From assembly GCA_963712745.1 (NCBI GenBank), contig CAVQJC010000017.1, forward strand, positions 352,001 to 416,000: DNA of 64,000 bases, in the 5' to 3' direction. This DNA comes from an uncultured Chloroflexia bacterium. GTDB taxonomy: Bacteria; Chloroflexota; Limnocylindria; Limnocylindrales; CSP1-4. Made by a program: the position numbers and the translations under genes. The notes beneath the pieces are model-generated. The model did not search any database. It saw nothing but the letters and a program-made list of their open reading frames with translations, and was not told where the DNA came from. This document shows positions 2,955-24,747 of this stretch, piece after piece. Numbering within the stretch: position 1 is the stretch's first letter; every line of letters starts with the position of its first letter.

Positions 2955-3044
2955 CGCGGTGGCGGGGGTAGCGGCCCGGTTCGTGTGCGGTGGCCTCGTG
3001 GCGTTGTCGCGTGCTCCGCTTCCACTCCCGTCGATCCTCCGGCC

Positions 3045-6776: not shown

Positions 6777-6889
6777 CAGGCGCAGCACCCGTCCCTTCAC
6801 GCGGCCGGCCTGGCGGACAACTCGTCAGGGGCGGAGCGGTACCTTCGGGTCCGGTTCGGTGCGGTCCCACTGAACGTAACTTGGGTCCG

Positions 6890-8419
6890 ATGGCCCAGCA
6901 TGAGACGCCGGGCGCGTTCGAACGCGTCCAGCAACCCGACCCCACCGCCACGGCTCCGGCGTCCTCTCGCTCCCTGCGCTGGGCCATCAGCCGCGGCCAG
7001 CTGTTCATGCTGCTGGCCTTCTTCCTGCCGGCGGTGGCCTCGCTGCTGGCCCCGGTGCTGACGGGGGACATCTCCTACCAGGTGCGGGCGGGCCAGCTCA
7101 TGTTCGAAGCCGGGCGCGTCATCGACACCGACCCGTTCACCTTCACCGTGGCGGGCGAGCCCTGGGTCAACCAGCAGTGGGGCGCCAGCATCGTCTTCGC
7201 GGCCGTCTACGATCTCGTCGGCTGGACCGGCCTGCTGCTCATGCGCGCGCTGCTCGTCGGCTCCGCCTTCGCGCTCGTCTACGCCGCCAACCGCGCGACC
7301 GGCGCCAACCGCATCGTCTCCTCGCTGGTGATGCTGGGCATGTTCGTGGTGGCCGCCACCAACCTGGCCCTACGTTCGCAGATGTTCGGGGTCGTCGGTT
7401 TCGCGGCCGTCGTGGCTCTCCTCGCCTGGCGGCACAAGCATCCTCGCCTGATGTGGCTGATCCCGCTGATCATGATCGCCTGGGCCAACACCCACGGTTC
7501 GTTCTTCATGGGCTGGCTGGCCATCGGACTGGCCGCGCTGGAGGACCTGGTGGCACGGCGACGGCTGGCCGTACAGACCATCGTCGTGGGCGTGGTCTCG
7601 GTGCTGGTCACACTCATCCACCCCTGGGGCGTGGAGATGTGGGCATACGTGGTGGAGCTCTCCTCCAACTCGCTCATCTCTGCGCTGGTGAGCGAGTGGC
7701 AGCCATCGACGCTCCAGACACCCACCGGCATCTTCTTCTTCGCCTCGCTGGCGGTCATGATCCTGTTGCTTCTCGTGCGCGGCCGCGTCATCTCGTGGCT
7801 CCAGCTGGCCTGGCTGGCCGGGCTCGCGCTGCTGAGCCTGATGGCGGTGCGCAACGTGGTCTGGTGGGCCATCGGTGCCGCGCCCATCCTGGCTATCCTC
7901 GTGAGCGGCCTCGAGTTCCGCGGGAGGCGCCTGGGCGATCCTGTCTTCGACGAACCCCGGGGCGCGGGCTACACCGCCATCGCCGGCCTGGCCGGGGTGA
8001 TGGCCCTGCTGGTGCTGCCCATCTGGCGGCCGATCGACCCGCTCTATGGACCCGAGAACGTCGTGCGCTACGCCCCCCGCGGCGTGACCGAGACCCTGCG
8101 CGCCGAAGCCACGACCGGCGACAGGCTCCTGGCCGATCAGCAGTGGGGTTCCTGGTTCGAGCTCGCGCTGCCGGGCGTGCCAGTGATGGTCGACACGCGC
8201 ATCGAGCTCTTCGACGCGGAGGTTTGGGGCGACTACCTGCATGTCCAGGGCGGACGCGAGGACTGGGCCGATATCCTCGACCGCTGGGGCGTCACGTTCG
8301 TGGCGGCCGACGCCGCCAACCGGCAGTTGCTGCCGTTCATCGAGGCGCACCCGGGCTGGGAGTTGCTGCACGAGGACGCGGAGGGCCTCGTCTACCGGCG
8401 CGTGGAGCCGCGGGCCTAG
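6890..8419 (+). CDS. Polytopic membrane protein, probable GT-C fold glycosyltransferase
   Basis: About 11 TM helices; GDISYQVRAG..DPFTFT..W, WANTHGSF, SEWQP and VMVDTRIELF motifs. Confidence 0.6.
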   Translation: MAQHETPGAFERVQQPDPTATAPASSRSLRWAISRGQLFMLLAFFLPAVASLLAPVLTGDISYQVRAGQLMFEAGRVIDTDPFTFTVAGEPWVNQQWGASIVFAAVYDLVGWTGLLLMRALLVGSAFALVYAANRATGANRIVSSLVMLGMFVVAATNLALRSQMFGVVGFAAVVALLAWRHKHPRLMWLIPLIMIAWANTHGSFFMGWLAIGLAALEDLVARRRLAVQTIVVGVVSVLVTLIHPWGVEMWAYVVELSSNSLISALVSEWQPSTLQTPTGIFFFASLAVMILLLLVRGRVISWLQLAWLAGLALLSLMAVRNVVWWAIGAAPILAILVSGLEFRGRRLGDPVFDEPRGAGYTAIAGLAGVMALLVLPIWRPIDPLYGPENVVRYAPRGVTETLRAEATTGDRLLADQQWGSWFELALPGVPVMVDTRIELFDAEVWGDYLHVQGGREDWADILDRWGVTFVAADAANRQLLPFIEAHPGWELLHEDAEGLVYRRVEPRA

Positions 8420-9171: not shown

Positions 9172-10275
9172 CTAGGACAGCCCATCCCATTCGACGACGC
9201 CGACGAACTCGTCGACGAGGGCGGCGTCGAACTGCCGACCGCGCTCCTGGCGCAATTCGCTCACAGCCTCGGTGATCGAAAGCGGATCCCGGTAGGGACG
9301 GAACTGCGTCATCGCGTCGAAGGCGTCGACGATGCCGATGATGCGGGCTCCTGTGGGGATCTGCTCGCCCACGAGACCGTCCGGATAGCCCTGTCCGTCC
9401 CAGCGCTCGTGGTGGTGGCGGATGATGGGGCCGAGCCGCTCGGCACCCGGGAGCGGCGCCGCGATGCGTTCGCCGATCTCGACATGGCGCCGCACCATCT
9501 CCAGCTCGTCGTCGCTGAGCGGGCCGCGCTTGAGCATGATCGATTCAGAGATGCCGATCCGGCCCAGGTCATGGAGCAGGATGCTATAGGCCACCGCCTG
9601 CAGGTCGGCCGAGGAGAGACCGACGCGCCGGCCCAGCTCCGCGGCCCAGCGTCCGATGCGCTCGGTGTGATTCTGGATGTCGGCATCGCGTGCGTTCATC
9701 TCCTGTGCGAGCGTGGTGATGACGCGGTGCGCTGCCTCCATGCCCAGCAGTGCACGCCGCATGCGCAGGGCTGCCTTGATGCGTGCCAGCAACACGTACG
9801 GGTCGACAGGTTTCATGACCACGTCGTCCGCGCCCTCGCTGAGGGTGGCCATGGCGGTGTCGTGGTGGGTGGGGCTGCTCAGGATGACGATGGGCAGATC
9901 CTGGTAGCGCCGATCACGGTGGACCTTGCGCATGAGGTCAGTGCCACCGGCATCGCCCACACTCATGTCCAGCAGGACCACGTCGATGGCGTGGGCCTCG
10001 AGCGCCTGGAGCACGCCGTCGCCGGTGGTCTCTATGACGGTGTCGTAGCCGTCCTGCTGCAGGACGGAGGCGATGACACGCTGGCTCATCACGTCACGGT
10101 CCGCGACCAGGACTCGGGCGCTGCCGAGGTCGAGCGCGGCAGCGGTCTTGCCGCCGGGCGCGGCCGCTGCATTCGCGAGCGCGGCTGTCATCTCAGGGCT
10201 GCCAGTCAGGTTCACGCCAGTGGGGATGCCGGACGCCTGGCGCGCACCTAGGGCCGATCGCAGGGCGGAAGTCAT
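9172..10275 (-). CDS. Response regulator receiver + HD-GYP cyclic-dinucleotide phosphodiesterase
   Basis: REC domain (LLDMSV, KP), LLHDLG and HHERWDGQGYP. Start codon uncertain. Confidence 0.9.
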   Translation of the reverse strand: MTSALRSALGARQASGIPTGVNLTGSPEMTAALANAAAAPGGKTAAALDLGSARVLVADRDVMSQRVIASVLQQDGYDTVIETTGDGVLQALEAHAIDVVLLDMSVGDAGGTDLMRKVHRDRRYQDLPIVILSSPTHHDTAMATLSEGADDVVMKPVDPYVLLARIKAALRMRRALLGMEAAHRVITTLAQEMNARDADIQNHTERIGRWAAELGRRVGLSSADLQAVAYSILLHDLGRIGISESIMLKRGPLSDDELEMVRRHVEIGERIAAPLPGAERLGPIIRHHHERWDGQGYPDGLVGEQIPTGARIIGIVDAFDAMTQFRPYRDPLSITEAVSELRQERGRQFDAALVDEFVGVVEWDGLS

Positions 10276-10735
10276 GTCGCGCACATAGTCTGGTGACCGC
10301 GGGCACCTGACAATCAGGACCATAGGGCTGGGCCCCGTGAGCCGACAGGCCATGGTGGTTCAAGCCTGCCGCCGGTCGGCGCCGAGGTCCGGTTCGGGCT
10401 GGGTTACAGCGCGCTCGTTCGGGCGATGACCTCACCATTCGTTGCGCAGGTGATGAACGCCTCGTCGACGGTGTGATCCCCTTCCACGGGTCTGTGCCTG
10501 TCGAGGATGACGCTCCTCGAGAGACATCCCGGTTCGAGCGAACGATGGCCATGCTCCGCTAGCCATGGACTTGGACGTCACCATGGGCTGGTCGCGCCTG
10601 CCACAAGACGATGAACCGCATGAGAGCCGTGACGGGCACCGCCACGGCGGCCTTCGTGGCGGTGCGTCTGCGGTCCGAGCATGCATCCCGGGCCCGGCGA
10701 TACGTTGTACGCGGATCGCCGGGCTGTCCGGTGAG

Positions 10736-12031
10736 CTACGAAGTCGCGTCGACCAGCAGGACCACCCGGAAGGTGCCGTCGGCAGGGGAGCCGATGGCAT
10801 AGGCGCTGTAGTTCTTGCCCTTCTCGAGCGACAGGACAGGCAGGTCGGCGATGACCCCCTTCTTGCCCGGCTTGCGGACGTCCAGATCGTAGTCTCCGGC
10901 CTTCAGGGTCAGGTACTCGAGGACATCCTTGTAGGCGATCTTCTTGACGATCGCGGCCTTGGGCTTGGCGCCGTCTGGAGCGATGTCGACCTTGGGTGCG
11001 TCGGCGCTCAGATGACCCACGCGGAGCTTCGCTCTCTTGGCCTCCGTGGCGGTGTCGTCCTCGATGACGCTGGCTTCGATGTTGGCGAGGCTGTTGCTCG
11101 CGATGATGGTCGTACGCGTATCACCTTCGAAGGGAAGCGTCGCATCGATAACGACCGGGCTGTCCTCGAGCGAGCCTCCCGAACCGATGATCTGGATCTG
11201 GTTCTCCCCGACCGGCACGGTGAGGTAGGGCGAACTCAGCCCGAACGGCAGGTTCCCGAAGACACGAACGCCGTTGAGGACGACGTCGATAGGCGGTGCA
11301 TCCGGTGACCCGTGCAGGATGCGCACCTGTGCCGTGGTGGGGATGGAGGCATCGAGCGCTGGGACCACCGTGAACGTCCCGGCTTCAAGGCTGCCGACCG
11401 CGAAGGCGCTGGAACTCGTTCCGGCGGCGAACTCGAGCGGCGGAAGCGTCACGACCGCATCGGTGCTGCCGGCCTCTCGGACCTCGAGTTCATAGCTGCC
11501 GGGCGGAAGGTTCGCGTAGCCGGAGTCGTCCGGGTATGCGAGGTTCGAGATGATGGGGTCACCGCCGACGGGTGCGATGTCCACCGGTGGGGCGTCGAAC
11601 GCGAAGTGGACCACCCGTGCCTGACCCTCACTGACGCTGGGGCTGGGGTCGTCGAGCAGGACCTGCGGAATGATGCCTTCCGCGAGACTGCCGGTGGCTG
11701 CCACGGTGGTGGCTGTGCCCCCCTCGAAGGTGAGTGCTTCATCGATGACCACGGGGCCCTCGACGAGCGACGAGCCGGCGGGCACGACCTGGATCTGGTA
11801 CTCAGCCGCGGGAACTACCAGGTAGTCCGTGATGGAGCCGAACTCGAGCCCTTCGACGACGCGATCGCCGTTGGCGTAGACGTCGACGGCCGGTGCATCG
11901 CCGGAGCCGTGAAGGACCCGCACCTTGGCGCTCTCATCCTGGGCTGCTGTGGCCGCGGGCATGGCCAGGAGCGCCGCAAGTGCCAACGAGCTGGCCAGCA
12001 CCTTGGCACTGCGGATGGTCGATTCGGGCAT
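10736..12031 (-). CDS. Secreted DUF4397-repeat protein
   Basis: Signal peptide; repeated VRVLHGSxDAPxVD units; GAGGAG SD before ATG 12031. Confidence 0.85.
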   Translation of the reverse strand: MPESTIRSAKVLASSLALAALLAMPAATAAQDESAKVRVLHGSGDAPAVDVYANGDRVVEGLEFGSITDYLVVPAAEYQIQVVPAGSSLVEGPVVIDEALTFEGGTATTVAATGSLAEGIIPQVLLDDPSPSVSEGQARVVHFAFDAPPVDIAPVGGDPIISNLAYPDDSGYANLPPGSYELEVREAGSTDAVVTLPPLEFAAGTSSSAFAVGSLEAGTFTVVPALDASIPTTAQVRILHGSPDAPPIDVVLNGVRVFGNLPFGLSSPYLTVPVGENQIQIIGSGGSLEDSPVVIDATLPFEGDTRTTIIASNSLANIEASVIEDDTATEAKRAKLRVGHLSADAPKVDIAPDGAKPKAAIVKKIAYKDVLEYLTLKAGDYDLDVRKPGKKGVIADLPVLSLEKGKNYSAYAIGSPADGTFRVVLLVDATS

Positions 12032-13358: not shown

Positions 13359-14188
13359 CCAGCCCCGTACGATCGACCCCGGCACGCACTTCCATCGGCG
13401 TAGGTCACGCGCTGCGTGACATGCGCATCATCACCAGGCGGAACCTGTTGCGCTTCACGCGCATGCCCCAGCTCCTGGTGTTCGCGACGATCCAGCCGGT
13501 CATGTTCCTGCTGCTCTTCAACTTCGTCTTCGGCGGCGCCATGGCGCTCGGTCTTGCGGGCGGAGGCGACTACATCAACTTCCTGATCCCCGGCATCCTC
13601 GTCCAGACCGTGGTCTTTGGAGCCACCAACACCGCGGTGGGCCTGACCGAGGACCTCAATGGCGGTGTCATCGACCGCTTCCGGTCGTTGCCCATGGCGC
13701 GTTCCGCGGTGATGGGCGGGCGCACGCTCGCGGATCTGGTTCGCAGCGCCGGCGTCCAGGCGCTGATGCTCATCGTGGGCATCATCATCGGCTTCCAGGC
13801 CGGAAGCTGGGTCGGATTGGCGGTCGGCTTCGTGCTGGCTGTGCTCTTCGGCTTCGCGGTGTCGTGGTTCTTCGCCACCATCGGCCTGATCGTGCGCAAC
13901 CCCGAGGCCACGCAGGGCGCCTCGTTCTTCCTGGTCTTCCCATTCGTCTTCGCGAGCTCGGTGTTCGTACCGACCGCCACGATGCCGGACTGGTTGCGGC
14001 TCTTCGCAGAACACCAGCCGGTAACCATCCTGACCAATACCGTGCGCAAGCTGACCTTCCCCGACGTGCCCATCTCTGGGGGCAATTCGATCGAGTCCCT
14101 GCTGCTGCGTTCGGCCCTCTGGATCGTCGGGCTGATCGTGGTCTTCGGCTGGCTCAGCGTCCGCCAATACAAGAAGGTCGTGGCCTGA
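13355..14188 (+). CDS. ABC-2 type permease (DrrB family)
   Basis: GVIDRFRSLPMAR motif; six TM helices; ATGA overlap with the ATPase gene. Confidence 0.92.
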   Translation: MTSPVRSTPARTSIGVGHALRDMRIITRRNLLRFTRMPQLLVFATIQPVMFLLLFNFVFGGAMALGLAGGGDYINFLIPGILVQTVVFGATNTAVGLTEDLNGGVIDRFRSLPMARSAVMGGRTLADLVRSAGVQALMLIVGIIIGFQAGSWVGLAVGFVLAVLFGFAVSWFFATIGLIVRNPEATQGASFFLVFPFVFASSVFVPTATMPDWLRLFAEHQPVTILTNTVRKLTFPDVPISGGNSIESLLLRSALWIVGLIVVFGWLSVRQYKKVVA

Positions 14189-14306
14189 GCTTGCAGCACC
14201 CGCGAGTCCTGGCCACCGGCCGGCCCGATGCACGGCCCAACGGGCGCAGGGACCTGCCGAACCCCCTGTCTCGGATACTCCCGAACCTCTAGCTGCTCAA
14301 CCTCTA

Positions 14307-15415
14307 GTGGTCCGCGTCATTAGTTCGTTGACAGGATGTGCGATGATGGGCGCATGCAGTCATCCGGGTTCTCCATCACCGATGAGGATCGCTTGACCCT
14401 GACGAGGTGGACGAAGGCCACCACGGTGTCCGCGGGCCATGCCGAGCGCGCGGCGATCGTGCTCGCCTGTGCCGACGGCGCGGGCACGTCGGCGACGGCG
14501 CGCCGGCTCGGGATCTCGCGTCCGACGGTCATCAAGTGGCGGGAGCGGTTCGCCGCGCAGGGCATCGCGGGGCTCGATGACGAGCCGCGCTCCGGCCGGC
14601 CCAAGGTCGTCGACGACGCGGCCATCATCGCGGCCACCCTCGATCCGCCACCCGAGCGGCTGGGCGTGACGCACTGGTCGACGCGCCTGTTGGCCCACGA
14701 GATCGGGGTCGGCGATGCCACGGTCGCGAGAGCCTGGCGCCGCTTCCACGTGCAGCCGTGGCGACAGGGCACGTTCAAGTTCTCGACCGACCCCGAGCTC
14801 GAGGCCAAGGTCCGCGACGTGGTCGGGCTCTACCTCGAGCCGCCCGAGCAGGCGATCGTGCTCTGCGTCGACGAGAAGAGCCAGCTCCAGGCCCTCGACC
14901 GGACCCAGCCGATGCTGCCGCTGCGGCCCGGCCAGGTCGAGCGCCGGACGCACGACTACAAGCGGAACGGGATCACGAACCTGTTCGCCGCGCTCGAGGT
15001 GGCCACGGGCAAGGTCACCGATCGCTGCTACGACCGGCACGGCAAGGCCGAGTTCCTCGACTTCCTCAAGCGCGTGGCCAAGGCCTACCCCCGACGGGAG
15101 CTGCACGTGATCCTCGATAACTACCACACCCACAAGCACGACGATGTCGACCGCTGGCTGGCCAAGCACCCCCGGGTGATGCTCCACTTCACCCCGACCT
15201 CGGGCTCGTGGCTCAACCTCGTCGAGGTCTTCTTCGGCATCATCAGCCGTCAGGCGATCCGCCGCGGCTCGTTCGCCAGCGTCCCGGAGCTCGTGGCCGC
15301 CATCCGGGCCTTCATCGATGGCTGGAACGAGCGCTGCCACCCGTTCACCTGGACGAAGACCGCTGACCAGATCCTGCCCCGCGCGACCCGTCAAACGACT
15401 TCAGACGCGGGACAC
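14307..15415 (+). mobile_element. IS630-family insertion sequence
   Basis: Imperfect terminal inverted repeats: left gtggtccgcgtcattagttcgttgac vs right (reverse complement) gtgtcccgcgtctgaagtcgtttgac. Each end is flanked by TA within CTAG (14305-14306, 15416-15417). Confidence 0.9.
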
Positions 15416-15418
15416 TAG
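14336..15418 (+). CDS. IS630 family transposase
   Basis: N-terminal HTH; DDE motifs CVDEKS, ILDNY, SWLNLVE. Start may be the Met at 14354. Confidence 0.95.
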   Translation: MCDDGRMQSSGFSITDEDRLTLTRWTKATTVSAGHAERAAIVLACADGAGTSATARRLGISRPTVIKWRERFAAQGIAGLDDEPRSGRPKVVDDAAIIAATLDPPPERLGVTHWSTRLLAHEIGVGDATVARAWRRFHVQPWRQGTFKFSTDPELEAKVRDVVGLYLEPPEQAIVLCVDEKSQLQALDRTQPMLPLRPGQVERRTHDYKRNGITNLFAALEVATGKVTDRCYDRHGKAEFLDFLKRVAKAYPRRELHVILDNYHTHKHDDVDRWLAKHPRVMLHFTPTSGSWLNLVEVFFGIISRQAIRRGSFASVPELVAAIRAFIDGWNERCHPFTWTKTADQILPRATRQTTSDAGH

Positions 15419-15614: not shown

Positions 15615-16352
15615 ATGCGGATGAATCGTCTCGTCCGCCGTGCAACCGTGATGGTGGCACTGGTCGCCATCACGCTGACCGCCGCCTCCGGCAGCGCCAT
15701 CGCCGACCCGCCGACCGCACCATCATCCCCAACGTCCGACGACATGAACGATGCGGCCCCGATGCCGACTTCGATGGCGACACCGACGTCCGAACCGGCG
15801 GAGACACCGGGCCAGGAGTCGACCCAGCCCGTCGCGACCGAACCGCGGGATTGCCGGCGACTCACGGACTTCACCGCCGACGACACGGGCACGTGGTTCA
15901 TCGTGAACGACGGCGTCATGGGGGGCCGTTCCGATGGCGGTGGGCTCATCGCTGAGTCGCTGCTGCAATTCGAAGGCAGCGTCGTAACTGCCGGGGGTGG
16001 ATTCACGAGTGCCAGGCTTCGCTTGGAGGGAGACGAACTGGTCGACACCTCCCGCATCGAGATGCGCGTGCGCCCCGATGTACGCACGTACGGCCTCACC
16101 CTGGAGGACGCCGCCGAATTCCGTGGGCGCCTGGTGTCGCACCGAGCCGATCTCGACATCGGCCCTGTCGACAGCGATGGCTGGGCGATCGCCACGGTGG
16201 AGTACGACCAGCTCGTGCCGTCGGTGTTCGGACTGCTCGTCGACGCGCCGCCGTTCGACCCCGCTGCAGCCCGTGAGCTCGGGATAATCATCGCCGATGG
16301 AATCGACGGCGACTTCGCCCTCGACATCGACTGGATCGACGCCTGCTCCTGA
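15615..16352 (+). CDS. Secreted CIA30-family protein
   Basis: WFIVNDGVMGGRS and GGGFTS motifs after a signal peptide and Pro/Thr linker. Confidence 0.8.
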   Translation: MRMNRLVRRATVMVALVAITLTAASGSAIADPPTAPSSPTSDDMNDAAPMPTSMATPTSEPAETPGQESTQPVATEPRDCRRLTDFTADDTGTWFIVNDGVMGGRSDGGGLIAESLLQFEGSVVTAGGGFTSARLRLEGDELVDTSRIEMRVRPDVRTYGLTLEDAAEFRGRLVSHRADLDIGPVDSDGWAIATVEYDQLVPSVFGLLVDAPPFDPAAARELGIIIADGIDGDFALDIDWIDACS

Positions 16353-16410
16353 GTGGCGTCGGCCCCGATGTTCCCGAGTGGCGCTACTGTTCTGATTGAG
16401 TCCGAGACAC

Positions 16411-16525
16411 GGGCCGGTAGCTCAGCAGTCAGAGCAGGGGACTTTTAAGCATTCCGAGCTGAGCGCTGTGCTTCCCTGAGTGGAGGAGCGAGCGAAGCGG
16501 GCACAGTTATCGGCTGTTGGCGAGC
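16411..16525 (+). repeat. tRNA-Lys 5'-half copy 1 (16411-16448) plus conserved 77-nt element end (16449-16525); att-like junction
   Basis: 37/38 identity to 22074-22111, ending at the anticodon loop. The following 77 nt align without gaps to 19087-19163. TACTGT (-10-like) at 16385. Confidence 0.88.
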
Positions 16526-16576
16526 TCGTTCTAGCAGCAGATCAGGTCCACCCCAGAGCACCCCGGGGGCGTCCAG

Positions 16577-16766
16577 CTACTCCTTGTCGGGGTCGATCCC
16601 ACGGGCCCGGAGCATCTCGCGGGGGTCGAGCGTGATGCCCGGCCACTTCTGCGTGAGGCGGCGCTTGGCGTCGGGCGGCACGACCAGGTCCGGATCGATC
16701 TCCAGGTCTCGGAGCCACTGCTCCTGCTGGTCCCTCGATCGCTCGCCGGACGAGCTCGCTTGTCAT
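16577..16766 (-). pseudogene. Small hypothetical protein (about 62 aa) with an apparent one-base frameshift
   Basis: ATG 16766 reads MTSELVRRAIE; after skipping one G it continues DQQEQWLRDLEIDPDLVVPPDAKRRLTQKWPGITLDPREMLRARGIDPDKE* with typical codon usage. Confidence 0.45.
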
Positions 16767-16850
16767 GCGGGGCCGTTCCCTTGACGCGACGGACTTCTCC
16801 GCGTTCCTCCGTCTTGCGTTGCCCACGGGTAGGAGTAATCCATCGGGTGC

Positions 16851-16890
16851 AAGAAGGGACCCGGGCCACCTCGCTGGGCAGGCCCGGGTC
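16851..16890 (-). terminator. Probable intrinsic terminator after the beta-helix gene
   Basis: Stem gacccgggcc/ggcccgggtc followed by ccttctt on the minus strand. Confidence 0.55.
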
Positions 16891-16914
16891 TCGCTGCTTG
16901 TCGCCTGGGTGTGG

Positions 16915-18372
16915 TCAGGCGGCGTCGCAGGTGGTGTTCTCGCCCATCGACGGCGTAGCGTCGTCGTGGATCTTGATGCTGGTCATGCCGCCGCAGGCGC
17001 TGTTGCCGTCGACGCTGGGGCTGGTGTTGGCGCCGATGTCGATGCCCATACCGTCGGCCTCGATCTCGTTGTTCGTGATCTCCGGGGAGCCGCCGCCGAA
17101 GAGGACGATGCCGTTCCAGGTATCGCGGATGGTGTTGTCGATGACCTCGGCATCGCTCCAGGAGACCGAGATGGCGATCATCTCGACAGAGATATCGTTG
17201 CCGCTGACGAGTGGCTGTTCAGTCTCCACGTCCGGGCCACCCTCAGCTGACACGCCATCGCCAGCGCCGGCGCTGACTTGGATGCCGTTGCGCGAGCCGC
17301 TGATGGTGTTGTCGCGGATGACAGGGGCGCCGGCCCTATCGATCTGGATCGCAGACGAGATGGCATAGCCCGTGGCGCCAGTGATGGTGTTGCCCTCGAT
17401 GAGGGCATTGGTCGGAACATCCCCCATGACGCCGCCCACGCTGATGCCGCCTCCGCCGGCCAGGGTGTTGTCTCGGATGACCGTGCTGTCGCCCATGCTG
17501 CCGTAGATGCTCGCGCCGTCGCGCAGATCGTTCCTCGCGATGAGCGGCTCAGCGCTATCCGCTGTCTCGATGCTGCCGCCGTTCACGAGGCTATCAGTGA
17601 GCGTGGCCGTCGAGCCCGACCCGATGAGCAGTCCGAAGTCGGCTCCGTCCAAGACCAGGTCGCTCAGCGTGGGCGACCCACCGTCGACGACGATCGCGCC
17701 CGTGTGACCGGTGACCTCACCCTCGGGGCCGGCGAAGGTCAGCCCGCGGACCTCGGCCTGCGTGTCATCCAACAGGAGTGAGTACGCTACCGTGAACTGC
17801 TGGACAGCCCCGCTCTCGGCGAAGTCGAACGTAGGGCCGCCTTCGGGAATGCTGATGACGACCTTCTCGCGGGGACCGTCACCCGCGACGGTGATGTCCT
17901 TGTCGATGACGATGGCCTCGACGTAGCTGCCAGGCTGCACGAGCACGGTGTCACCCGCAGCGGCCGCAGCCACGGCCTCGGCGATGGTGCTGAAGTCACC
18001 CGAGCCATCGGCGGTCACGACGTGGGTCGAGAGCGCGGCCGCTGGCGGCTGAGTGGGGATGGCGTCGATGACGTTCACCGCCACGGCGGTGATGGCGATG
18101 GCCGCGGTGATGGCCGTGGCGCTGTACATGAGTCGGGACCTCCGGTTCATATGGGGTGGATAGTCGTGATCGGCGGTGCGACGTCTCGCACCTCGGCCAC
18201 GGTCGAACCACCGCCCCAGGAACCGGGCCCTGGTCTGGGGGGTCGTCGGGAGCCGAGACAGGGTCTCGTGCATGATGTGGTCGGTATCGGGGGCCGGCAT
18301 GGCCTCATCACGAGCCGCCAGCCAGCGTCGGACCTGCTCGGCTTCGTGCTCGTTCATCCGTGGGTCGCTCAT
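16915..18372 (-). CDS. Anti-sigma-like membrane protein with extracellular right-handed beta-helix (pectin-lyase/NosD-like) domain
   Basis: About 80-aa cytoplasmic N-terminus, one TM helix, DGSGDFSTIAEAV..GDTVLVQPGSY and repeated I.DNTI beta-helix turns. ATGA overlap with the upstream sigma gene. Confidence 0.75.
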   Translation of the reverse strand: MSDPRMNEHEAEQVRRWLAARDEAMPAPDTDHIMHETLSRLPTTPQTRARFLGRWFDRGRGARRRTADHDYPPHMNRRSRLMYSATAITAAIAITAVAVNVIDAIPTQPPAAALSTHVVTADGSGDFSTIAEAVAAAAAGDTVLVQPGSYVEAIVIDKDITVAGDGPREKVVISIPEGGPTFDFAESGAVQQFTVAYSLLLDDTQAEVRGLTFAGPEGEVTGHTGAIVVDGGSPTLSDLVLDGADFGLLIGSGSTATLTDSLVNGGSIETADSAEPLIARNDLRDGASIYGSMGDSTVIRDNTLAGGGGISVGGVMGDVPTNALIEGNTITGATGYAISSAIQIDRAGAPVIRDNTISGSRNGIQVSAGAGDGVSAEGGPDVETEQPLVSGNDISVEMIAISVSWSDAEVIDNTIRDTWNGIVLFGGGSPEITNNEIEADGMGIDIGANTSPSVDGNSACGGMTSIKIHDDATPSMGENTTCDAA

Positions 18373-18929
18373 GTGCTCGCCTCCGGGCCGCGGCCGAGCG
18401 AGACCGACGGATCGGCACCGGCCATGGCATCGCGGAGTTTGCGCATCGCGTGGTAGAGCCGGGAACGCACGGTTCCCTCGGGGATGTCGAGCGCCCCTGC
18501 GATCTCCGGCAGGGTCATGCCCAGGTAGTGGTGCATCACGACCGCGGCTCGGTGGTCCGTCGAGAGTCCCCGGAAGACGCGCTCAATCTCATCTCGATCG
18601 TGGACTTCCGCATACCCGCCGTGCGTCGCCGGTTCGCGAGTCAGGTCGGTGATGCCGCTCGCTCGCCACCGCTTGGCTCGTCGCGCCTCCGAGTAGCAGG
18701 AGTTGACGAGGACTCGGTAGCTCCAGGCGCCGAATGTGTCGGGCTCGCGCAGCTTGGGCAGCTCCCGCCAGATGCTGAGCAGGGCCTGCTGCGTAGCGTC
18801 TTCCGCCAGGTGTGCGTCGCCGAGGACGCCGCGAGCCACCGCCAGCATTCGGTCGACGACCAATTCGGCCAGCATGGAGAAAGCCCCCTGGTCGCCGGCT
18901 TGCGCTCTGAGCACGAGATCGCGGTCCAT
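18369..18929 (-). CDS. ECF (sigma-70 group IV) sigma factor, cassette 1
   Basis: AQAGDQGAF, AEDATQQALL..W, FGAWSYR; region 4 EIAGALDIPEGTVRSRLYHA. Confidence 0.93.
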   Translation of the reverse strand: MDRDLVLRAQAGDQGAFSMLAELVVDRMLAVARGVLGDAHLAEDATQQALLSIWRELPKLREPDTFGAWSYRVLVNSCYSEARRAKRWRASGITDLTREPATHGGYAEVHDRDEIERVFRGLSTDHRAAVVMHHYLGMTLPEIAGALDIPEGTVRSRLYHAMRKLRDAMAGADPSVSLGRGPEAST

Positions 18930-19048
18930 GCCTCTCCCGATGGTGCACCCGCCTGTCGAGCGCACTTACCCATACAGACGCAGGCGGCCGTGGAACCGAC
19001 TCAATGGTCACGCCAGGACGTGTGTGGGCTAGGCTTGGGGCTTCCACG

Positions 19049-19163
19049 GGGCCGGTAGCTCAGCGGTCAGAGCAGGGGACTTTTTAGCATTCCGGGCTCA
19101 ACGCTGCAGCCCCCTGCGTGGAGGGGCGAGCGTACGGGGCACAGTTATCGTCTGTAGATGAGC
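19049..19163 (+). repeat. tRNA-Lys 5'-half copy 2 (19049-19086) plus conserved 77-nt element end; att-like junction
   Basis: 37/38 identity to the tRNA 5' half; 60/77 identity to 16449-16525 by manual alignment. TAGGCT (-10-like) at 19030. Confidence 0.88.
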
Positions 19164-19334
19164 ACGAGTCACGCGCTCCACAGCGAGGCTCGGCTCTGGC
19201 TGGCGTCAAGGCCCGGCCTCAGCGAGAAATCGAGGGAACAGTTCGGCCTTCCGTTGCCCCATAAGATGCGTACAGGCCATCATCGATACCGGCACCGATG
19301 AGCTGACGGCTACAGACGCCGGATGGGGGGTTCG

Positions 19335-19898
19335 GTGGATTCCGACCTCGTGGTCCAGGCACAGGGCGGCGACCACGCTGCGTTCGAGCGGCTCGCGCTC
19401 GTGGTCAGCGATCGCGTCCATGGCATCGCGTTCAACATCCTGCGCGACTCCGACCAGGCCGAAGACGCCACGCAGCAGACACTCCTGGCCGTCTGGCGGG
19501 ACCTCCCACAGCTACGCGATCCGGCCCGTTTCGAAGCCTGGGTCTACCGGATCGCTGTCCGTGCCTGCCACGCCGAAGCCCGCCGCACCCGGCGCTGGCT
19601 GTCGCTCGTCTCGCCCTGGTCTGGCGGAGGCCCCACGGTCTCTGACGCCGACCTCGATGCGGTCGCCGACCGGGACCAGTTCGACCGAGCCTTCCGTCGC
19701 CTCTCGGTGGACCAGCGCACGGTCATCGTGCTGCACCACTACCTCGGGCTGACGATCGAGCAGGTCGCCGAAACGGTCGGGGTCTCGGATGGCACGGTCA
19801 AATCCCGACTCAGCCGAGCCTGCGCGAGGCTCCGGACGGCCCTGGTGGCCGATGCGACCGACACCGGTGAGACCACACGCATGGGGCTGATCCGATGA
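19335..19898 (+). CDS. ECF sigma factor, cassette 2
   Basis: AQGGDHAAF, AEDATQQTLL..W, FEAWVYR, GTVKSRLSRA. GTG start chosen by homology to cassette 1. Confidence 0.93.
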   Translation: MDSDLVVQAQGGDHAAFERLALVVSDRVHGIAFNILRDSDQAEDATQQTLLAVWRDLPQLRDPARFEAWVYRIAVRACHAEARRTRRWLSLVSPWSGGGPTVSDADLDAVADRDQFDRAFRRLSVDQRTVIVLHHYLGLTIEQVAETVGVSDGTVKSRLSRACARLRTALVADATDTGETTRMGLIR

Positions 19899-21529
19899 GT
19901 GCCGAGCGCGACCTCAACGACATCCTCGAAGCGCGTCTGCGCGACGTCCCACCACTCCGTCCGACAGTCCTCAGCGACGTCTTCGATCAGACCCGGATGA
20001 TGCCGCAGCGCCGACATCGGTGGCCGCTCCATCTCCTCCAAGGTCGCACCGAGCGCCTCACGGATGTATCGGCTACGGATGCGGTTCCTGCTGCAGTTCC
20101 AGATACGGATGGGCGACAGCCCGTAAGGGGGTCCACGATGTTCTCCGCACTCAAGTTCATCGCCGCTGGCGTCATCGTGGCGCTGTTCGGCGGCTTCCTG
20201 CTCGCAGGCCTTCTGACGGTGCCGAGCGACGACGAGGCCCCTCCGGCGGCGGTGACCGAGTCACCCTCGCCTACGACGACCGAGGAGTTGCTCTCGGGCA
20301 TGGTCACGGAGGAAGTCGAGCCGGGGGTGTTCCGGCTCCTCGACGATGGTGCAGGGCACCCCATGGGAGCGGAGGACGTGACCAACTACGCCACACCCTA
20401 CGTCGGCCCTGATGGAGCCGTCTGGGTCCGCGCCGGGGTGAGTGACATGGACGGCGACACCGTGATGTGGCGACTCGGCGTGCCGGGCCGCCACCAGCAG
20501 TCACCGGAGAGAGGCTTCTCCGACCCGTCCGACTTCGCCACGGCCCCTGATGGAACGCTGTGGGTCGCTGGCTACGCCTACCTCTCCTCCTACGATGGCG
20601 ACTCGTGGACCGAGCATCGGGTCGCGAAGGACCCGTCCAGGGAGTGGCCGCCGAATGCCACGGCGGTCGAGGTCTTGCCCGACGGGACCGTCTGGGCGGC
20701 GTGGGAAGACCGCCTCGGGCGACTCGACGCCGAAGGCTGGCACTACCACCACCCCGCCATGGAGGAGGACGAACGGCTATCGGACCTCCGCGTCCTGCCC
20801 GATGGGTCCATCCTCGCCTTCATGTGGCACGGCCGCATGCTCCGCTTCGACGGAGCCGCGTGGCAGGAGGTCCCGATGCCGGACGTCGGTGCGGCGACCC
20901 GCGTCAGCGGCATCCGCATCGGCTCTGATGGCACCCTCTGGGTGCACTTCATCTCACGTTCGACGGCCCCCGTGCGCGGGAGCGAACCGCGGACGGATTG
21001 GTGGGGCAGCGACGAGGTCCCACAGGACCACCTGGCCCGCTTCGACGGCAAAGCGTGGACGACCTACTCGGCCACCGACGGCCTGCCTCGACTCACCCAT
21101 TCGTCCAGACCTGAGCCGGAATGGGACGTGCATCCCGATGGTTCGGTGTGGGTCCTCGCCGACCCGGAGCAGACCACGGTGTCCGACCCTGGTTCACTCC
21201 TGTGGACGCTGATGTCCTTCGATGGCAAGACATGGACCGAGTGGCCTGATGGGATCGAGTTGCTCGATGTCGGAAGCGACAAGGTCGAGTTGCTCGACAT
21301 CGGTCCTGATGGGACCGTCTGGATGGGCAAGCCCGGTCCAGACCACGAGGAGCGCCTCCATCTCGCATCGCTCGACGGCACCACCTGGCGGCAGTACCCA
21401 CGACTCCTAGTCACAGGTGGAGACCCAGACTGGGATAGCCTCGAGGTCGCCCCGGACGGCAGCGTATGGGTGAAGGCCGACGATGACCGCGGCCTCTACG
21501 TCATCACCCCCGAGGCCGTGGCGGAGTAG
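19895..21529 (+). CDS. Anti-sigma-like membrane protein with extracellular beta-propeller repeats
   Basis: About 80-aa N-terminus, TM helix KFIAAGVIVALFGGFLLAG, repeated PDGxxW...FDGxxW blades. ATGA overlap with the sigma gene. Confidence 0.78.
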   Translation: MSAERDLNDILEARLRDVPPLRPTVLSDVFDQTRMMPQRRHRWPLHLLQGRTERLTDVSATDAVPAAVPDTDGRQPVRGSTMFSALKFIAAGVIVALFGGFLLAGLLTVPSDDEAPPAAVTESPSPTTTEELLSGMVTEEVEPGVFRLLDDGAGHPMGAEDVTNYATPYVGPDGAVWVRAGVSDMDGDTVMWRLGVPGRHQQSPERGFSDPSDFATAPDGTLWVAGYAYLSSYDGDSWTEHRVAKDPSREWPPNATAVEVLPDGTVWAAWEDRLGRLDAEGWHYHHPAMEEDERLSDLRVLPDGSILAFMWHGRMLRFDGAAWQEVPMPDVGAATRVSGIRIGSDGTLWVHFISRSTAPVRGSEPRTDWWGSDEVPQDHLARFDGKAWTTYSATDGLPRLTHSSRPEPEWDVHPDGSVWVLADPEQTTVSDPGSLLWTLMSFDGKTWTEWPDGIELLDVGSDKVELLDIGPDGTVWMGKPGPDHEERLHLASLDGTTWRQYPRLLVTGGDPDWDSLEVAPDGSVWVKADDDRGLYVITPEAVAE

Positions 21530-21641
21530 GCTCGCGGCAGACGATCCGGCAGCCCCATGCACATCGGTAGCTACGTGGGCTGAACTGCAGCAAGCGCAGC
21601 CATATCCGCCTAAGAGGGGACCATAGCTGGCCTCTGTTGCT

Positions 21642-21755
21642 CCGTAGAGCCGACAAGTGGACTGCTATCAGCGCACGTCCGGAGGGCTTCCTGAGCGTAG
21701 CTGGAGCCCGTGACGAGGGTCCAGACAGCCGGTGGCTGGTCGATGTGTTCGCGTC
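21642..21755 (+). repeat. About 110-bp repeat, copy A (inverted relative to 22275-22384)
   Basis: ccgtagagccga...gcgcacgtccgga...ctgagcgt..gggtccagac.gccggtggctg matches the reverse complement of 22275-22384. Confidence 0.8.
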
Positions 21756-21942
21756 GAAGGTCGCGGGCATTGCTGGGCATGACCGTCGAGAGGACGTATC
21801 GGGTCAAGCCCTCCACGGCCTTGGCGTACGTCCTGACCGTCTGGTCGGCCATGTTGGCGGCCAGCAGGCTCCGTTCGAAGGATCCGAGATCGACGAGGAG
21901 GGGCGGGGTAGCATGTGCTGCGGTGAGAGCTTCGGCTGGCAT
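21742..21942 (-). pseudogene. Truncated tyrosine recombinase/integrase, N-terminal SAM-like domain only
   Basis: SFERSLLAANMADQTVRTYAKAVEGL...DLRREHI is typical of XerC/D-like N-termini. The ORF breaks where the 110-bp repeat begins. Confidence 0.65.
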
Positions 21943-22073
21943 CGAACGGACCTTTCGCTGGGAGGTGGGCGCCTCCCACGATCACTGTCTGTTCGACCGT
22001 TGCAGCCAGAGATCTTATCGGTGCATGGATCAGCTATCGGCTCTATCGGAGCACGAAACTGGCCAGAAACCTC

Positions 22074-22149
22074 GGGCCGGTAGCTCAGCGGTCAGAGCAG
22101 GGGACTTTTAATCCTCGTGTCCTGGGTTCGAATCCCAGCCGGCTCACCA
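22074..22149 (+). tRNA. tRNA-Lys (anticodon TTT)
   Basis: Full cloverleaf: GGGCCGG/CCGGCTC acceptor stem, GGGGA-CTTTTAA-TCCTC anticodon arm, TTCGAAT T-loop, encoded CCA. Confidence 0.96.
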
Positions 22150-22213
22150 CTTCTTTCGGGTATCCACGCTCCGATGCGAGGTAATCCCTCGCTCGTGCGG
22201 CCTTCCTGGAACG

Positions 22214-22237
22214 GCTGACAGCCACGTTGACAGCAAC
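22214..22237. promoter_or_regulatory. Tandem 12-bp repeat, probable integrase arm-type binding sites
   Basis: gctgacagccac-gttgacagcaac lies about 65 bp downstream of the tRNA 3' end. Confidence 0.5.
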
Positions 22238-22274
22238 GTCAGACGCACTCAGTCGTATGCAGAGCACGTCTGTG

Positions 22275-22384
22275 GACGCGATATCGGACAGCCACCGGCC
22301 GTCTGGACCCTGATTGCGGGCTTCAGCAACGCTCAGCCAGCCTTCCGGACGTGCGCCGGATGCTGTCACTTTTCGGCTCTACGG
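22275..22384 (-). repeat. About 110-bp repeat, copy B
   Basis: Reverse-complement homolog of 21642-21755. Confidence 0.8.
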
Positions 22385-22448
22385 GACTTGAAGAGCTGCT
22401 GGAGAAACCGGTACCGCTGTGCCGGCCGCGGACCTGCGGACCGGTCGA

Positions 22449-24038
22449 TCACCGCTCGGCAAGGCCCGAGTCCGAAGCCGGGAGATCGTCGAACGTGATG
22501 ATCCAGTGGTCACGCTGCCACCCGTTGGACTCCTCGTCCTCGTAGACCGAGTGCGCGATGGTGTTGCCGCTGATCGGAGCGATCCCCGCACCGCCCGCCC
22601 CAAAGGTGTCGGTCTTCAGGCCCAGCGGGACGTTGACCACGGTCGGTTCCGCGGAGTCGGCCGAGTGGAAGACCATGCTGCCACCGGTGAGCTCCACCCA
22701 GGTCGACCCCAACGGGGCCACGAAGAAGGCCTGTGGCCGCTGCGGGACCTGTTGCCATTCGACGCCATCGGATGACACCCACTCCTCCGACTCCTGCCTC
22801 GCCTCGTCGAAGCTCCAGGTCACCACCCCGTTCGGCTTCCGGACGCCCATCTCCGGGTCTGCTGGCAGCAGTCCCTGGACTCCCGCCGGCTCACCGGGTT
22901 CGTCTCCGAGGACTTCACCGAGCGTCCACTCCCCGCCATCTGGCGACGTCCATGTCTGGATCATCCCGTCGGCTCTCATCGCGAGCGCTGTGAAGCCGCC
23001 ATCGGACCCAGACACGACGAAGGCTTGAGTGGACGTCCCGGAGTCGGGCTCGGGCAGCTCGACGGACCCGACTCGACCATCCCGTACGAGTCCCATCTGC
23101 TGTACGGCCGGGGGATAGCCGTCGCCCACGGCCCAGCGCTCGACGAAATCGATGCCCACACCCTCGAGCGTTTTGAGCTCGGCGCCCGTGGCAGCGTCGA
23201 CCACGCGAAGGCCAGCATCGGTCTCCTCGAACCGGAGGGTGGCGTGCTCGTCGTCGTACGCACCCAGGACCCGGTAGCTGCCGTCATCGATGCGCTCGAG
23301 CCGGGCGAACTCGCCACGCTGGTCCTCCCCTTCGGGATGGGACGGTAGCCCCAGGAAGCTCGTGGCGTTCGTCACCCCGAACTCAAGCGGCACGACGATG
23401 GCATCCCCGGAGGCCGCGACACCTCCAAGGTCAAGCCGCCAGTCGATGGCCGCGGGTGAGGGCGGCTCCACGCCGGTCAGGTCGACCGCCTCCCACTCGA
23501 GCGCATCGGTCGATCGCCATAATGACGGCAGAGCGAGGCTGCCGGGCTCGTACGTGGAGAAGTCGTGCGCCGTGAGCCAGTACTCGCCGCCGGCCTGGGT
23601 GAGGCTGAGCTCCTCGAAGTCGGCCTCGATGGGTAGTGGCCTGCGCGTCCACTCAAGCAGGTCCGGCGAGAACCACAGGTGCTGGCAGTTGTGTTCCGAC
23701 GGGCACGGTCCGTAGATGTGGCCGGGCCCGTCGAGCGATACATATCCGCCTTGGACCGGGATAGGGCGCAACACGTCGGGAAGCGACTCTGCATCTCCGC
23801 TCAGATGGACCCAACGCGTGGACCCGAGCGGCGTGTCCAGCGTGTGCGACTCGATGTCCTCCGGGATCTCCGCCGGCAGCTCGATCGGCCGGGTGGTCGT
23901 CGACGACGGCGATGCAGACACACCGACCGCCGGTGCCAACTCGTCGTTCGGCTGGGTCGTCATCACTCCTGCCAGCAGGAAGCCGCCGAACAGGGCCACG
24001 ATGGCACCGGCGACGACGAACTTGGTCGCACTGAACAT
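22449..24038 (-). CDS. Exported Asp-box (BNR) repeat protein; C-terminal part of an anti-sigma-like protein of cassette 3
   Basis: Begins MFSATKFVVAGAIVALFGGFLLAG, nearly identical to the TM of 19895-21529, with a GGAGG SD. Repeats WFSPDLLEW, WRSTDALEW, WTSPDGGEW, WVSSDGVEW. Confidence 0.75.
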   Translation of the reverse strand: MFSATKFVVAGAIVALFGGFLLAGVMTTQPNDELAPAVGVSASPSSTTTRPIELPAEIPEDIESHTLDTPLGSTRWVHLSGDAESLPDVLRPIPVQGGYVSLDGPGHIYGPCPSEHNCQHLWFSPDLLEWTRRPLPIEADFEELSLTQAGGEYWLTAHDFSTYEPGSLALPSLWRSTDALEWEAVDLTGVEPPSPAAIDWRLDLGGVAASGDAIVVPLEFGVTNATSFLGLPSHPEGEDQRGEFARLERIDDGSYRVLGAYDDEHATLRFEETDAGLRVVDAATGAELKTLEGVGIDFVERWAVGDGYPPAVQQMGLVRDGRVGSVELPEPDSGTSTQAFVVSGSDGGFTALAMRADGMIQTWTSPDGGEWTLGEVLGDEPGEPAGVQGLLPADPEMGVRKPNGVVTWSFDEARQESEEWVSSDGVEWQQVPQRPQAFFVAPLGSTWVELTGGSMVFHSADSAEPTVVNVPLGLKTDTFGAGGAGIAPISGNTIAHSVYEDEESNGWQRDHWIITFDDLPASDSGLAER

Positions 24039-24053
24039 GGACTGGAACCTCCC

Positions 24054-24272
24054 TTGCCAGGCGGTGACGAACGCATCGTGGACGGCATCCCTGGCCTCAC
24101 TGGGGTCGCCCAGGATGGCACTGGCGAGCCGATAGCTGTCCGAGAGCTGGCGCGTGGCGAGCCGCCGGAAGGCGACGGCCTTCTCGTCGGCCCGCACGCC
24201 CTCTGCCGGATGGCCAGTGACTTGATCGTCCAGAGCCTGCCTCGTCGTATTGGTGACCGTGCGCGTTGGCAC
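24054..24272 (-). pseudogene. Truncated ECF sigma factor (region 2 only), fused in frame to the downstream gene
   Basis: AFRRLATRQLSDSYRLASAILGDPSEARDAVHDAFVTAW; region 4 is missing. Confidence 0.75.
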
Positions 24273-24354
24273 CCTTCGTTCGGCGTCCACAATGACATGA
24301 CGATCGGCGCACCCGAAACATTCATTCAGAGCTGCCCAACGTGGAGTGTTTGGG

Positions 24355-24615
24355 CGATCGCATGCGGTCTGCTTCTGGCGCTGCTCGAGCACATGCCCGT
24401 ACGTATTCGACGTCAGCACGATCGAGTCGTGCCCGAGGAGGTTCTTCACTTCCTCGAGCGTGAAGCCCTGGGCGAGCAGGAATGTGGCAGCCGAGTGGCG
24501 GAGGTCGTGGAAGCGGCGATGGGGGAGGCCAGCGTTCGGATAGGGCCCGCTGGAAGGCCCGGGTCACCGTCGCCGTATCGAGTGGGTGTGCCTCGGCTCG
24601 TCGTGAAGACGTGCC
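24355..24615 (-). pseudogene. Tyrosine integrase C-terminal catalytic remnant (frameshifted)
   Basis: VFTTSRG, TVTRAFQRAL and RFHDLRHSAATFLLAQG...LLGHDSIVLTSNTYGHV (HxxR, LGH, catalytic Y), spread over shifted frames. Confidence 0.88.
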
Positions 24616-24747
24616 CTGACCGGCTTCAGCGCGACCCTGCAACGAACCGCCACGAGGATGAGCGGCGTGAGGACGAGCCGCCAGTAGTGCGGGGCCGTCC
24701 AGATCTGTTGGGCTGGGAAGAGCCCCCGCTGCGCGAGAGCAGCAGCG

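Follow-up and report, generated by a model that had tools for sequence, protein, structure and literature searches.

A tRNA-Lys-anchored tandem stack of two probably decayed integrative elements with ECF sigma factor gene pairs in an uncultured Chloroflexia bacterium

In the Islander collection of genomic islands, 159 of 3919 islands are marked by a 5' fragment of the target gene and 125 tandems of two or more islands are recorded (PMC4383910), and the pTN3-like archaeal integrases use the 5' half of a tRNA gene as attB (PMC8371274). Accretion has been described for cis-mobilizable elements (CIMEs), where decay leaves cargo flanked by attachment (att) sites and a new element enters a retained att site, giving tandems of decayed and live elements (PMC5704250). 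The tycheposons of Prochlorococcus are small elements, cargo-carrying or satellite-like, that have a tyrosine recombinase and often a helicase/primase; they use specific tRNAs, partial tRNAs separate successive integrations, and additive islands arise beside the tRNA from degenerate remnants and pieces of integrases (bioRxiv 10.1101/2020.12.28.424599). In Dehalococcoides, islands at ssrA stand in tandem between direct repeats of the target RNA gene with rdhA as recurrent cargo, and 15 islands without an integration module have been proposed to be cis-mobilizable elements (PMC3146451). Each of these sources is cited, here and below, for the sections that were compared. Here, we analyse a 64,000-nucleotide (nt) stretch from an uncultured Chloroflexia bacterium (contig CAVQJC010000017.1), referred to as the window, in which partial copies of a tRNA-Lys gene delimit units carrying extracytoplasmic function (ECF) sigma factor genes. 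We propose, with a probability of about 0.8, that two decayed integrative elements, both of one family, stand in tandem at positions 16411-22149. An earlier reading of the window, made from its letters only and called the sequence-only reading below, knew of no described system of this kind; Islander 5'-fragment islands, CIME accretion, the Dehalococcoides ssrA arrays and the tycheposons are close precedents, as far as the compared sections describe them.

The window contains a single tRNA-Lys(TTT), which was found by ARAGORN and scores 68.5 bits against RF00005 with Infernal. The 5' part of this tRNA, positions 1-38, occurs three times on the plus strand, at 16411, 19049 and 22074, with start-to-start distances of 2638 and 3025 nt, and position 38 is the last base of the anticodon loop. 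None of 100 shuffled sequences contained any match to the 38 nt, and the three copies are the only tRNA-Lys 5' halves in the whole assembly of this genome (G000). A search of the window with the 3' 38-mer or 25-mer of the tRNA, allowing up to three mismatches, gave no second match and thus no 3' fragment. The locus therefore has the arrangement by which Islander recognises an island, an intact tRNA gene with an end-fragment on the same strand, and the fragment is a 5' fragment lying upstream. In copies 1 and 2 the similarity continues for about 80 nt beyond the tRNA half, forming a 118-nt repeat with 83% identity that the sequence-only reading had missed. We refer to the part that follows the half as ext (Table 1). 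Judged from where the identity with the intact tRNA gene ends, the crossover would lie at the anticodon loop.

Each of the two intervals holds one ECF sigma factor gene coupled to the gene of a partner with a single transmembrane (TM) stretch, and the two pairs are oriented in opposite directions. Both have the features of an ECF sigma/anti-sigma pair, in that sigma regions 2 and 4 are present and a membrane partner is co-transcribed. Partner 1 has a cytoplasmic N-terminus, one hydrophobic stretch and a right-handed beta-helix domain, and partner 2 combines a single TM stretch with an outer domain that is rich in repeats and propeller-like. Since neither matches a known anti-sigma domain family, it is their context that points to putative anti-sigma or sensor proteins. 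The third pair, located 3' of the tRNA gene, is broken by an internal deletion: its open reading frame (ORF) starts with an integrase C-terminus (amino acids 1-30), continues with a sigma region-2 fragment (amino acids ~87-134) and has a TM segment that is 54% identical to that of partner 2. The Xer-like integrase remnant in unit 2 is also found with an integrase profile (E 1.4e-11); its start is 131 nt away from the 5' end of tRNA-Lys and its orientation is that of an intact element in a relative, where the distance is 129 nt. Two integrase queries and the integrase profile revealed no intact tyrosine recombinase in the window, and no cognate intact integrase, which the sequence-only reading had suggested looking for, was found in this genome, which is 84.55% complete. 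The structural claims of that reading are borne out by these results: three same-orientation tRNA-Lys 5' halves of which only the last is whole (ARAGORN and shuffles), in each interval one ECF sigma gene with its coupled single-TM partner, the two pairs in opposite orientations (domain matches and 4-nt overlaps), a broken third pair beyond the tRNA, and two integrase remnants without an intact recombinase (queries and profile).

Table 1. Features of the array and its flanks, in window positions
Feature	Position	Strand	Evidence and remarks
CIA30-domain gene, left flank of array	15615..16352	+	Pfam CIA30
tRNA-Lys 5' half, copy 1	16411..16448	+	positions 1-38, 1 mismatch; predicted displaced fragment, attL of unit 1
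ext1	16449..16520	+	conserved ~70-nt arm adjoining the putative anticodon-loop crossover; terminates in CAGTTATCGGCTGT
Partner 1, 485 aa	16915..18372	-	Pfam Beta_helix and NosD; overlaps sigma 1 by 4 nt
ECF sigma factor 1	18369..18965	-	Sigma70_r2 and r4_2; NCBIfam sigma70-ECF 74.7 bits, cut-off 42.9
Right end of unit 1	18966..19048		canonical P-arm motifs absent
tRNA-Lys 5' half, copy 2	19049..19086	+	1 mismatch; predicted attL of unit 2
ext2	19087..19158	+	copy 2 + ext2 94.5% identical over 110 nt to half-tRNA + ext of G197
ECF sigma factor 2	19323..19898	+	domain matches; 44% identical to sigma 1
Partner 2, 544 aa	19895..21529	+	overlaps sigma 2 by 4 nt; weak Reg_prop match; internal repeats
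Inverted repeat	left arm 21642..21744, right arm 22283-22384		~103 nt, ~80% complementary
Xer-like integrase remnant, N-terminal 68 aa	21739..21942	-	tblastn 46% identity to a relative's intact integrase, E 3e-13; 45% in a further search
Canonical P arm of unit 2	21943..22073		CTTATCGG.., CAGCTATCGGCTCT, GGAGCACGAAAC; compared with 23 P arms
Intact tRNA-Lys(TTT)	22074..22149	+	0 mismatches in 5' part; ARAGORN, Infernal; predicted attR of unit 2
Broken third module	22449..24449	-	integrase C-terminus, sigma region-2 fragment, TM segment, 460-aa outer domain in one frame
Second-type integrase, C-terminal remnant	24368..24649	-	SAM_3 + Phage_integrase

The search for tRNA halves followed by ext covered 201 genomes of the same family. 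Three of these (G082, G139 and G194) are flagged as unpublished and are included in the family tallies; their loci L068 and L077 are two of the 21 integrase-tRNA pairs described below, and no conclusion hinges on them. A half-tRNA with ext lies upstream of tRNA-Lys in several genera. In G129 (locus L041) we found an intact integrated element: the half and ext (165-269) are followed by a 7.9-kb body with a DnaB_N/AAA_25 helicase and an integrase of 309 amino acids (6975-7904, minus strand), which starts 129 nt from the tRNA-Lys at 8034 and points away from it. A free form is represented by L186 from IMG/VR (9828 bp), whose two ends share an exact repeat of 127 bp and which falls into the class with direct terminal repeats. 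Here, the integrase gene (1678-2676, minus strand), P arm, tRNA-Met 5' half (2744-2780) and ext (2781-2850) are contiguous and there is no whole tRNA; an HK97-type capsid protein (6730-7950) and an HNH protein (44-481) are also encoded. L186 is thus a circular satellite-like element carrying the attP that the sequence-only reading had predicted.

The integrase of this family consists of SAM_4/SAM_1 and catalytic domains and is a simple Xer-like protein, which reaches 170.8 bits with the NCBIfam XerC model (cut-off 335) and 66.6 bits with the integron-integrase model (cut-off 265). Homologues at E<=1e-30 are encoded in 84 of the 201 genomes. When the best 30 loci were inspected, a tRNA 5' end faced the start of the integrase gene in 21, in divergent orientation and at a distance of ~100-260 nt (Gly-TCC 6, Met 5, Lys-TTT 3, Arg-CCG 3, Lys-CTT 2, His 1, Val 1); in two a tRNA 3' end faced the integrase gene, and in seven there was no tRNA within the 1.5-kb flank. 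A tblastn comparison with plasmids gave only matches below 60% identity, with ~30% among the matches listed, several of which are annotated as XerC/XerD. The integrase on the other side of the tRNA is of a second type, intact forms of which (344-376 amino acids, SAM_3 plus catalytic domain) lie 1.5-3.5 kb 3' of tRNA-Lys in the genomes G152, G094 and G184 of the same genus and read toward it; shortened forms are present at the same place in G116 and G169. Searches with tRNA 3' fragments did not find the far boundary of this 3'-side island in the window.

Within the genus, the content of the locus varies. The CIA30 flank is orthologous in G197 (L039), with 81% nucleotide identity over 714 nt through the junction and 67% amino acid identity, and is followed there by a single half and ext, a beta-lactamase-family gene and tRNA-Lys, in that order. 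In G152, a homologue of the response-regulator/HD gene of the window (9172-10353) lies 218 nt upstream of tRNA-Lys, and no half-tRNA copy is present at this locus. The comparison across relatives that the sequence-only reading had called for thus gave a different single unit behind the same flank in one genome and no half-tRNA copy in the other.

A profile of ext found two copies in the window with nhmmer and no older ones. With an ext-only model, matches were obtained in 62 of 151 family genomes, spread over 32 of 49 genera. In relatives, ext also terminates in the CAGTTATCGGCTGT box, which is shared with the P arms, and its CAGTTATnnGCT motif is found twice more in the P arm, as with arm-type binding sites. 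P arms have three motifs in common, two CAGTTATnnGCTnT boxes, GTGGTCAAGC, and GAGCACGAAA beside the tRNA; all of them are present between the integrase remnant and tRNA-Lys in unit 2, and the right end of unit 1 does not have them. Ext is found behind sense 5' halves of Lys-TTT, Lys-CTT, Met, Arg and Thr tRNAs and also behind reverse-complemented 3' halves of Gly-TCC, Gly-CCC and Thr tRNAs. What stays constant is therefore the layout relative to the integrase, not relative to tRNA transcription, and ext must be a DNA arm, which fits an arm beside a symmetric core. We infer that ext is the P' arm of an attP with the anticodon stem-loop as its core, with putative cut sites and binding proteins. 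T[GA]AACTGGC was at first considered as a -10 box, a reading that was abandoned because the neighbouring GAGCACGAAA motif also adjoins tRNA 3' ends. Both arrangements meet at tRNA-Thr(CGT) of G037 (L100, C4:1602000-1620000; tRNA at 11594-11668). Upstream of this tRNA gene lie units of the 5'-half type (ext at 5295 and 8029) and downstream one of the 3'-half type (ext at 14343, minus strand), so that the family inserts on either side of a single gene. In two uncultured Actinomycetes metagenome-assembled genomes (MAGs; L194 and L199), a tRNA-Lys 5' half is followed by only the first ~22-nt ext pattern (GCC..GGCGT.A.CGCTG), which suggests that more distant elements with the same 5'-half layout exist outside the family.

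As seen in relatives, the family encodes a small Xer-like tyrosine recombinase and its attP has a fixed layout, in which the integrase gene points away from a P arm of ~100-260 bp, followed by a tRNA fragment reaching to the end of the anticodon loop and a conserved P' arm of ~70 bp, ext. We propose that in the tRNA-Lys(TTT) case the element would bring the 5' half as its fragment. This half would be joined to the chromosomal 3' half by an exchange of strands at or within the anticodon loop and would have to supply the promoter for the rebuilt tRNA. The native 5' half would be displaced to the far junction and followed there by ext, and the 5' half of the intact tRNA-Lys in the window is probably element-borne. 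In a next step, a second element would have integrated into one of the existing att sites. Deletions would then have removed most of the integrase gene from unit 2 and the whole integrase gene together with the P arm from unit 1, and the residue would be cargo, the two ECF sigma/anti-sigma-like pairs. The region 3' of tRNA-Lys would be the remnant of a separate, classical-type island with a different integrase, to which the broken third sigma pair would belong.

We favour this sequential reading because the repeat identity stops precisely where the anticodon loop ends, with ext common to copies 1 and 2 beyond that point, and because the N-terminus of the unit 2 integrase lies in the expected place and orientation next to a canonical P arm. 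The intact element L041 and the free circle L186 show the predicted layouts, the content of the locus varies within the genus (G197, G152), the integrase faces tRNA 5' ends at 21 of the 30 family loci, and this incomplete genome yielded no cognate intact integrase. The proposal of the sequence-only reading, that elements with their own tRNA 5' half integrated one after another and rebuilt the tRNA at the right junction each time, is thus supported by L186, L041, G197 and G152. Its view that the elements are non-autonomous is not supported, since the 68 integrase codons kept in unit 2 make at least this unit a decayed autonomous element.

Several observations weigh against our reading. Unit 1 has neither an integrase remnant nor a canonical P arm, and ext1 is therefore the one feature that places it in the family. 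In relatives, most small units have no integrase remnant and several of these have canonical P arms; some may therefore be integrase-less by nature and not through decay. G197 has an ext2-type arm (94.5%) directly behind the CIA30 flank, which does not fit the simple expectation that units become older with distance from the tRNA and requires integration at attL, independent acquisition or recombination between copies. The promoter and terminator scan of 16200-22400 predicted none, including for the rebuilt tRNA-Lys. Joints from excision or deletion at att boundaries, which the sequence-only reading had suggested searching for, were not seen in short public Logan contigs; no public run contained more than 28% of the words of the locus. 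One 1.3-kb public contig (run X3) joins 19127 to 16486, in that the initial 41 nt of an ext2-like arm continue into ext1 and unit 1. This contig could stem from a strain with a hybrid ext or be a product of recombination between ext copies, and is not weighed on either side.

Arrays of similar units are also found elsewhere, and it is these arrays that raise the question whether the units are remnants at all. In G008, five ext copies spaced 1.6-3.3 kb precede an 11-kb element whose integrase gene adjoins tRNA-Gly, and G052 and G150 have three ext copies each. A second array in the genome studied here (L098, contig C20:648000-660466) consists of four units of 1.3-2.9 kb, delimited by five reverse-complemented tRNA-Gly(CCC) 3' halves, four of them with ext and the fifth cut by the contig end. 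When these loci were scanned in six frames with the integrase profile, built from 30 sequences, only the remnant in the window, the intact genes of L041 and L095 and weak matches of the second type were found. Instead of decayed elements, the units might be cassettes that are integrase-less by design, made of ext, cargo, P arm and tRNA half, in the manner of CIMEs or integrons; they would be taken up and released in trans through the integrase of a co-resident or incoming element and form a reshufflable gene stock. This is suggested by the many arrays of 1.2-3.3-kb units without an integrase remnant (G008, G052, G150 and the C20 array), by the ~110 nt of canonical P arm kept in several of these units, by the two arms of unit 2 in the window and by two neighbouring ext copies of G052 that are identical over the compared stretch. 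However, the shortened integrase of unit 2 shows decay directly, and unit 1, which has no P arm, is therefore not excisable as a unit; other integrase-less units also have no P arm. The sole circular form found, L186, carries an integrase gene, no integrase-less circle was seen, and an excision joint is missing from the public contigs here too. We therefore consider this explanation unlikely.

The cargo of the arrays also bears on the suggestion of the sequence-only reading that the locus is a stock of sigma modules. In this genome, sigma/partner pairs occupy four of six delimited units, 2/2 in the tRNA-Lys array and 2/4 in the Gly-CCC array, where one unit encodes a heliorhodopsin (7267-8337); two further pairs lie directly left of the C20 array, and the broken one lies 3' of tRNA-Lys. 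Five of the 45 Sigma70_r4_2 matches of the genome fall within ~21 kb, and ECF sigmas are also present in units around tRNA-Thr in G037. By simple arithmetic, ~0.13 matches would be expected in the 12.5 kb of the C20 array, which has three; since the window was chosen for its sigmas, this array is the only independent sample. A dedicated sigma/anti-sigma cassette system that collects ECF sigma-plus-sensor modules could account for this enrichment, but the cargo of units in other genomes is diverse: it includes a beta-lactamase-family hydrolase, a Na/Ca exchanger, trypsin, alpha/beta hydrolases, AbiE, a reverse transcriptase, a radical-SAM enzyme, ATPases and TetR/Crp/LuxR/IclR regulators. In a tree of 36 of the 44 sigma-profile hits of G000 (those covering at least 120 profile positions, eight shorter hits being excluded) and two sigmas from G037 and G152, the five array-borne sigmas did not cluster and needed five changes, the same as in 500 of 500 shuffles. 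Among the 200 family genomes, no orthologous cassette was found for either partner protein, and the best relatives are at paralog level with at most 45% identity. A dedicated system thus appears improbable to us. The sigma pairs are diverse accessory modules of a lineage-specific expansion and not one mobile sigma family; of the earlier suggestion, the over-representation of sigma pairs in the arrays of this genome stands and the dedicated stock does not. We also noted defence-type cargo, with a reverse transcriptase (13674-15200) in the G008 array (L094, C10:920000-939999), an AbiEii/AbiEi pair (2408-4059) in the G052 array (L096, C29) and DUF4143 ATPases in these two arrays. The live element beside the G008 array encodes a C-5 methylase and a resolvase.

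Two further explanations concern the repeats themselves. As ~70 nt of non-coding sequence are kept across 32 genera, and single copies can, by eye, form small hairpins from C-runs and G-runs, the half-tRNA with ext could be a functional RNA gene, tRNA-like or structured, and not a recombination scar. RNAalifold gave no consensus structure in ext for 18 half-plus-ext copies (seven pairs, four of them in the tRNA D stem, none compensatory), and Rfam had no match at the repeats at E<=1. Moreover, the strand of ext relative to tRNA transcription varies, as seen with the reverse-complemented 3' halves, and the CAGTTATnnGCT motif recurs in the P arm in the manner of arm-type sites. An RNA gene is accordingly very improbable. 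Hardly credible is an artefact of binning or of assembly, the latter named by the sequence-only reading as an outcome that would speak against it; the nature of the genome, a MAG with 84.55% completeness and 5.03% contamination, might bring such artefacts to mind. Point changes distinguish the three copies, each of which has flanks of its own, the junction from CIA30 through half to ext is orthologous in the G197 assembly, and the architecture recurs in many independent assemblies and a circular viral contig. In addition, public contigs from other samples span ext-to-cargo and cargo-to-half junctions.

One might also combine parts of these explanations: a single Xer-like family would use the symmetric anticodon core of at least eight tRNA species in either orientation and displace the 5' or the 3' half, two-armed integrase-less units of 1-3 kb would be reshuffled in trans by co-resident members in integron-like arrays, and ECF sigma-plus-sensor modules would be the preferred exchangeable cargo in this genus. 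We offer this combination tentatively and regard it as rather unlikely. For the family as a whole, integrase-less units that can be mobilised in trans are possible; the window itself is an ordinary decayed example.

Some neighbouring features are of interest in their own right. The inverted repeat listed in Table 1 encloses the integrase remnant, the P arm, tRNA-Lys and 133 nt of the tRNA 3' flank, and its outer ends, at 21642 and 22384, read CGGCTCTACGG, resembling the P-arm box GGCTCTATCGG; it may go back to an inversion or mark a secondary att site. A 60-amino-acid open frame (16584-16766, minus strand) that ends in ...RARGIDPDKE is located between ext1 and partner 1; it matches nothing in Pfam, PHROG or NCBIfam and could represent the end of an element gene that has otherwise been lost. 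Outside the array, an apparently intact IS630-type transposase ORF (14336-15418, 360 amino acids, DDE_3 and HTH domains) sits in the variable region upstream, with an ABC-2 transporter pair on one side and the CIA30 gene on the other.

Taken together, the locus shows how accessory regulatory modules, ECF sigma factors plus sensors, accumulate beside a tRNA gene in an uncultured and poorly studied lineage. Half a tRNA with a 70-nt arm behind it is a compact signature by which the family can be searched for and which maps island boundaries to the base even after loss of the integrase, where Islander-like tools discard them. The dual orientation at the anticodon loop and the integrase-less units that keep their arms pose the question whether such arrays are graveyards or exchangeable gene stocks.

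Compared with known systems, the locus resembles the islands of Islander in that a tyrosine integrase would split a tRNA gene, which the element would rebuild, and in that the far end is marked by a displaced fragment with the orientation of the gene. As described in the sections compared, an island enters Islander only if it has its own integrase gene and measures 2 kb or more; neither unit of the window has an intact integrase, and Islander would therefore filter out the array. The use of the anticodon loop in either orientation also sets this family apart from those islands. The CIME concept goes back to integrative and conjugative or integrative and mobilizable elements of Firmicutes located at 3' ends of genes, and no conjugation or mobilisation genes were seen here; unit 2 keeps ext2 and a canonical P arm, and unit 1 keeps ext1 with a non-canonical right end and, with one arm lost, would not even count as a CIME in the sense of the sections compared. 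Features of tycheposons are seen in the relatives, an integrase and a helicase in L041 and an integrase, a capsid protein and an HNH protein in L186, whereas the window holds only remnants. The likeness is one of description; the family recombinase shows only Xer-like similarity below the NCBIfam cut-offs, and the host lineage differs, since the relatives with such junctions are MAGs of Chloroflexota / Ca. Limnocylindrales or Limnocylindria. The Dehalococcoides islands differ in having a serine recombinase, 20-bp repeats of the tmRNA 3' end and a position downstream of the gene, according to the sections compared, and the pTN3-like integrases, to which the window is likewise similar by description, are enzymes of archaeal plasmids and viruses. 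As in integrons, short gene units stand in order with a repeated recombination site between them. Unlike in integrons, there is no resident intI beside an attI and no attC-like hairpin in ext, the units carry their own regulators and are oriented in both directions, and the integrase travels with the element, so the term integron-like used in the sequence-only reading is not supported. The compared sections do not mention the fixed order of integrase, P arm, fragment and ext in both orientations at at least eight tRNA species, for which no targeted search was made, nor the conserved 70-nt P' arm or this host lineage (no targeted search for these two either); the sections on tycheposons do not mention the use of both halves of one tRNA either. 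Measured against those sections, the locus is a rarer, mirror-image form of the known tRNA-anchored island.

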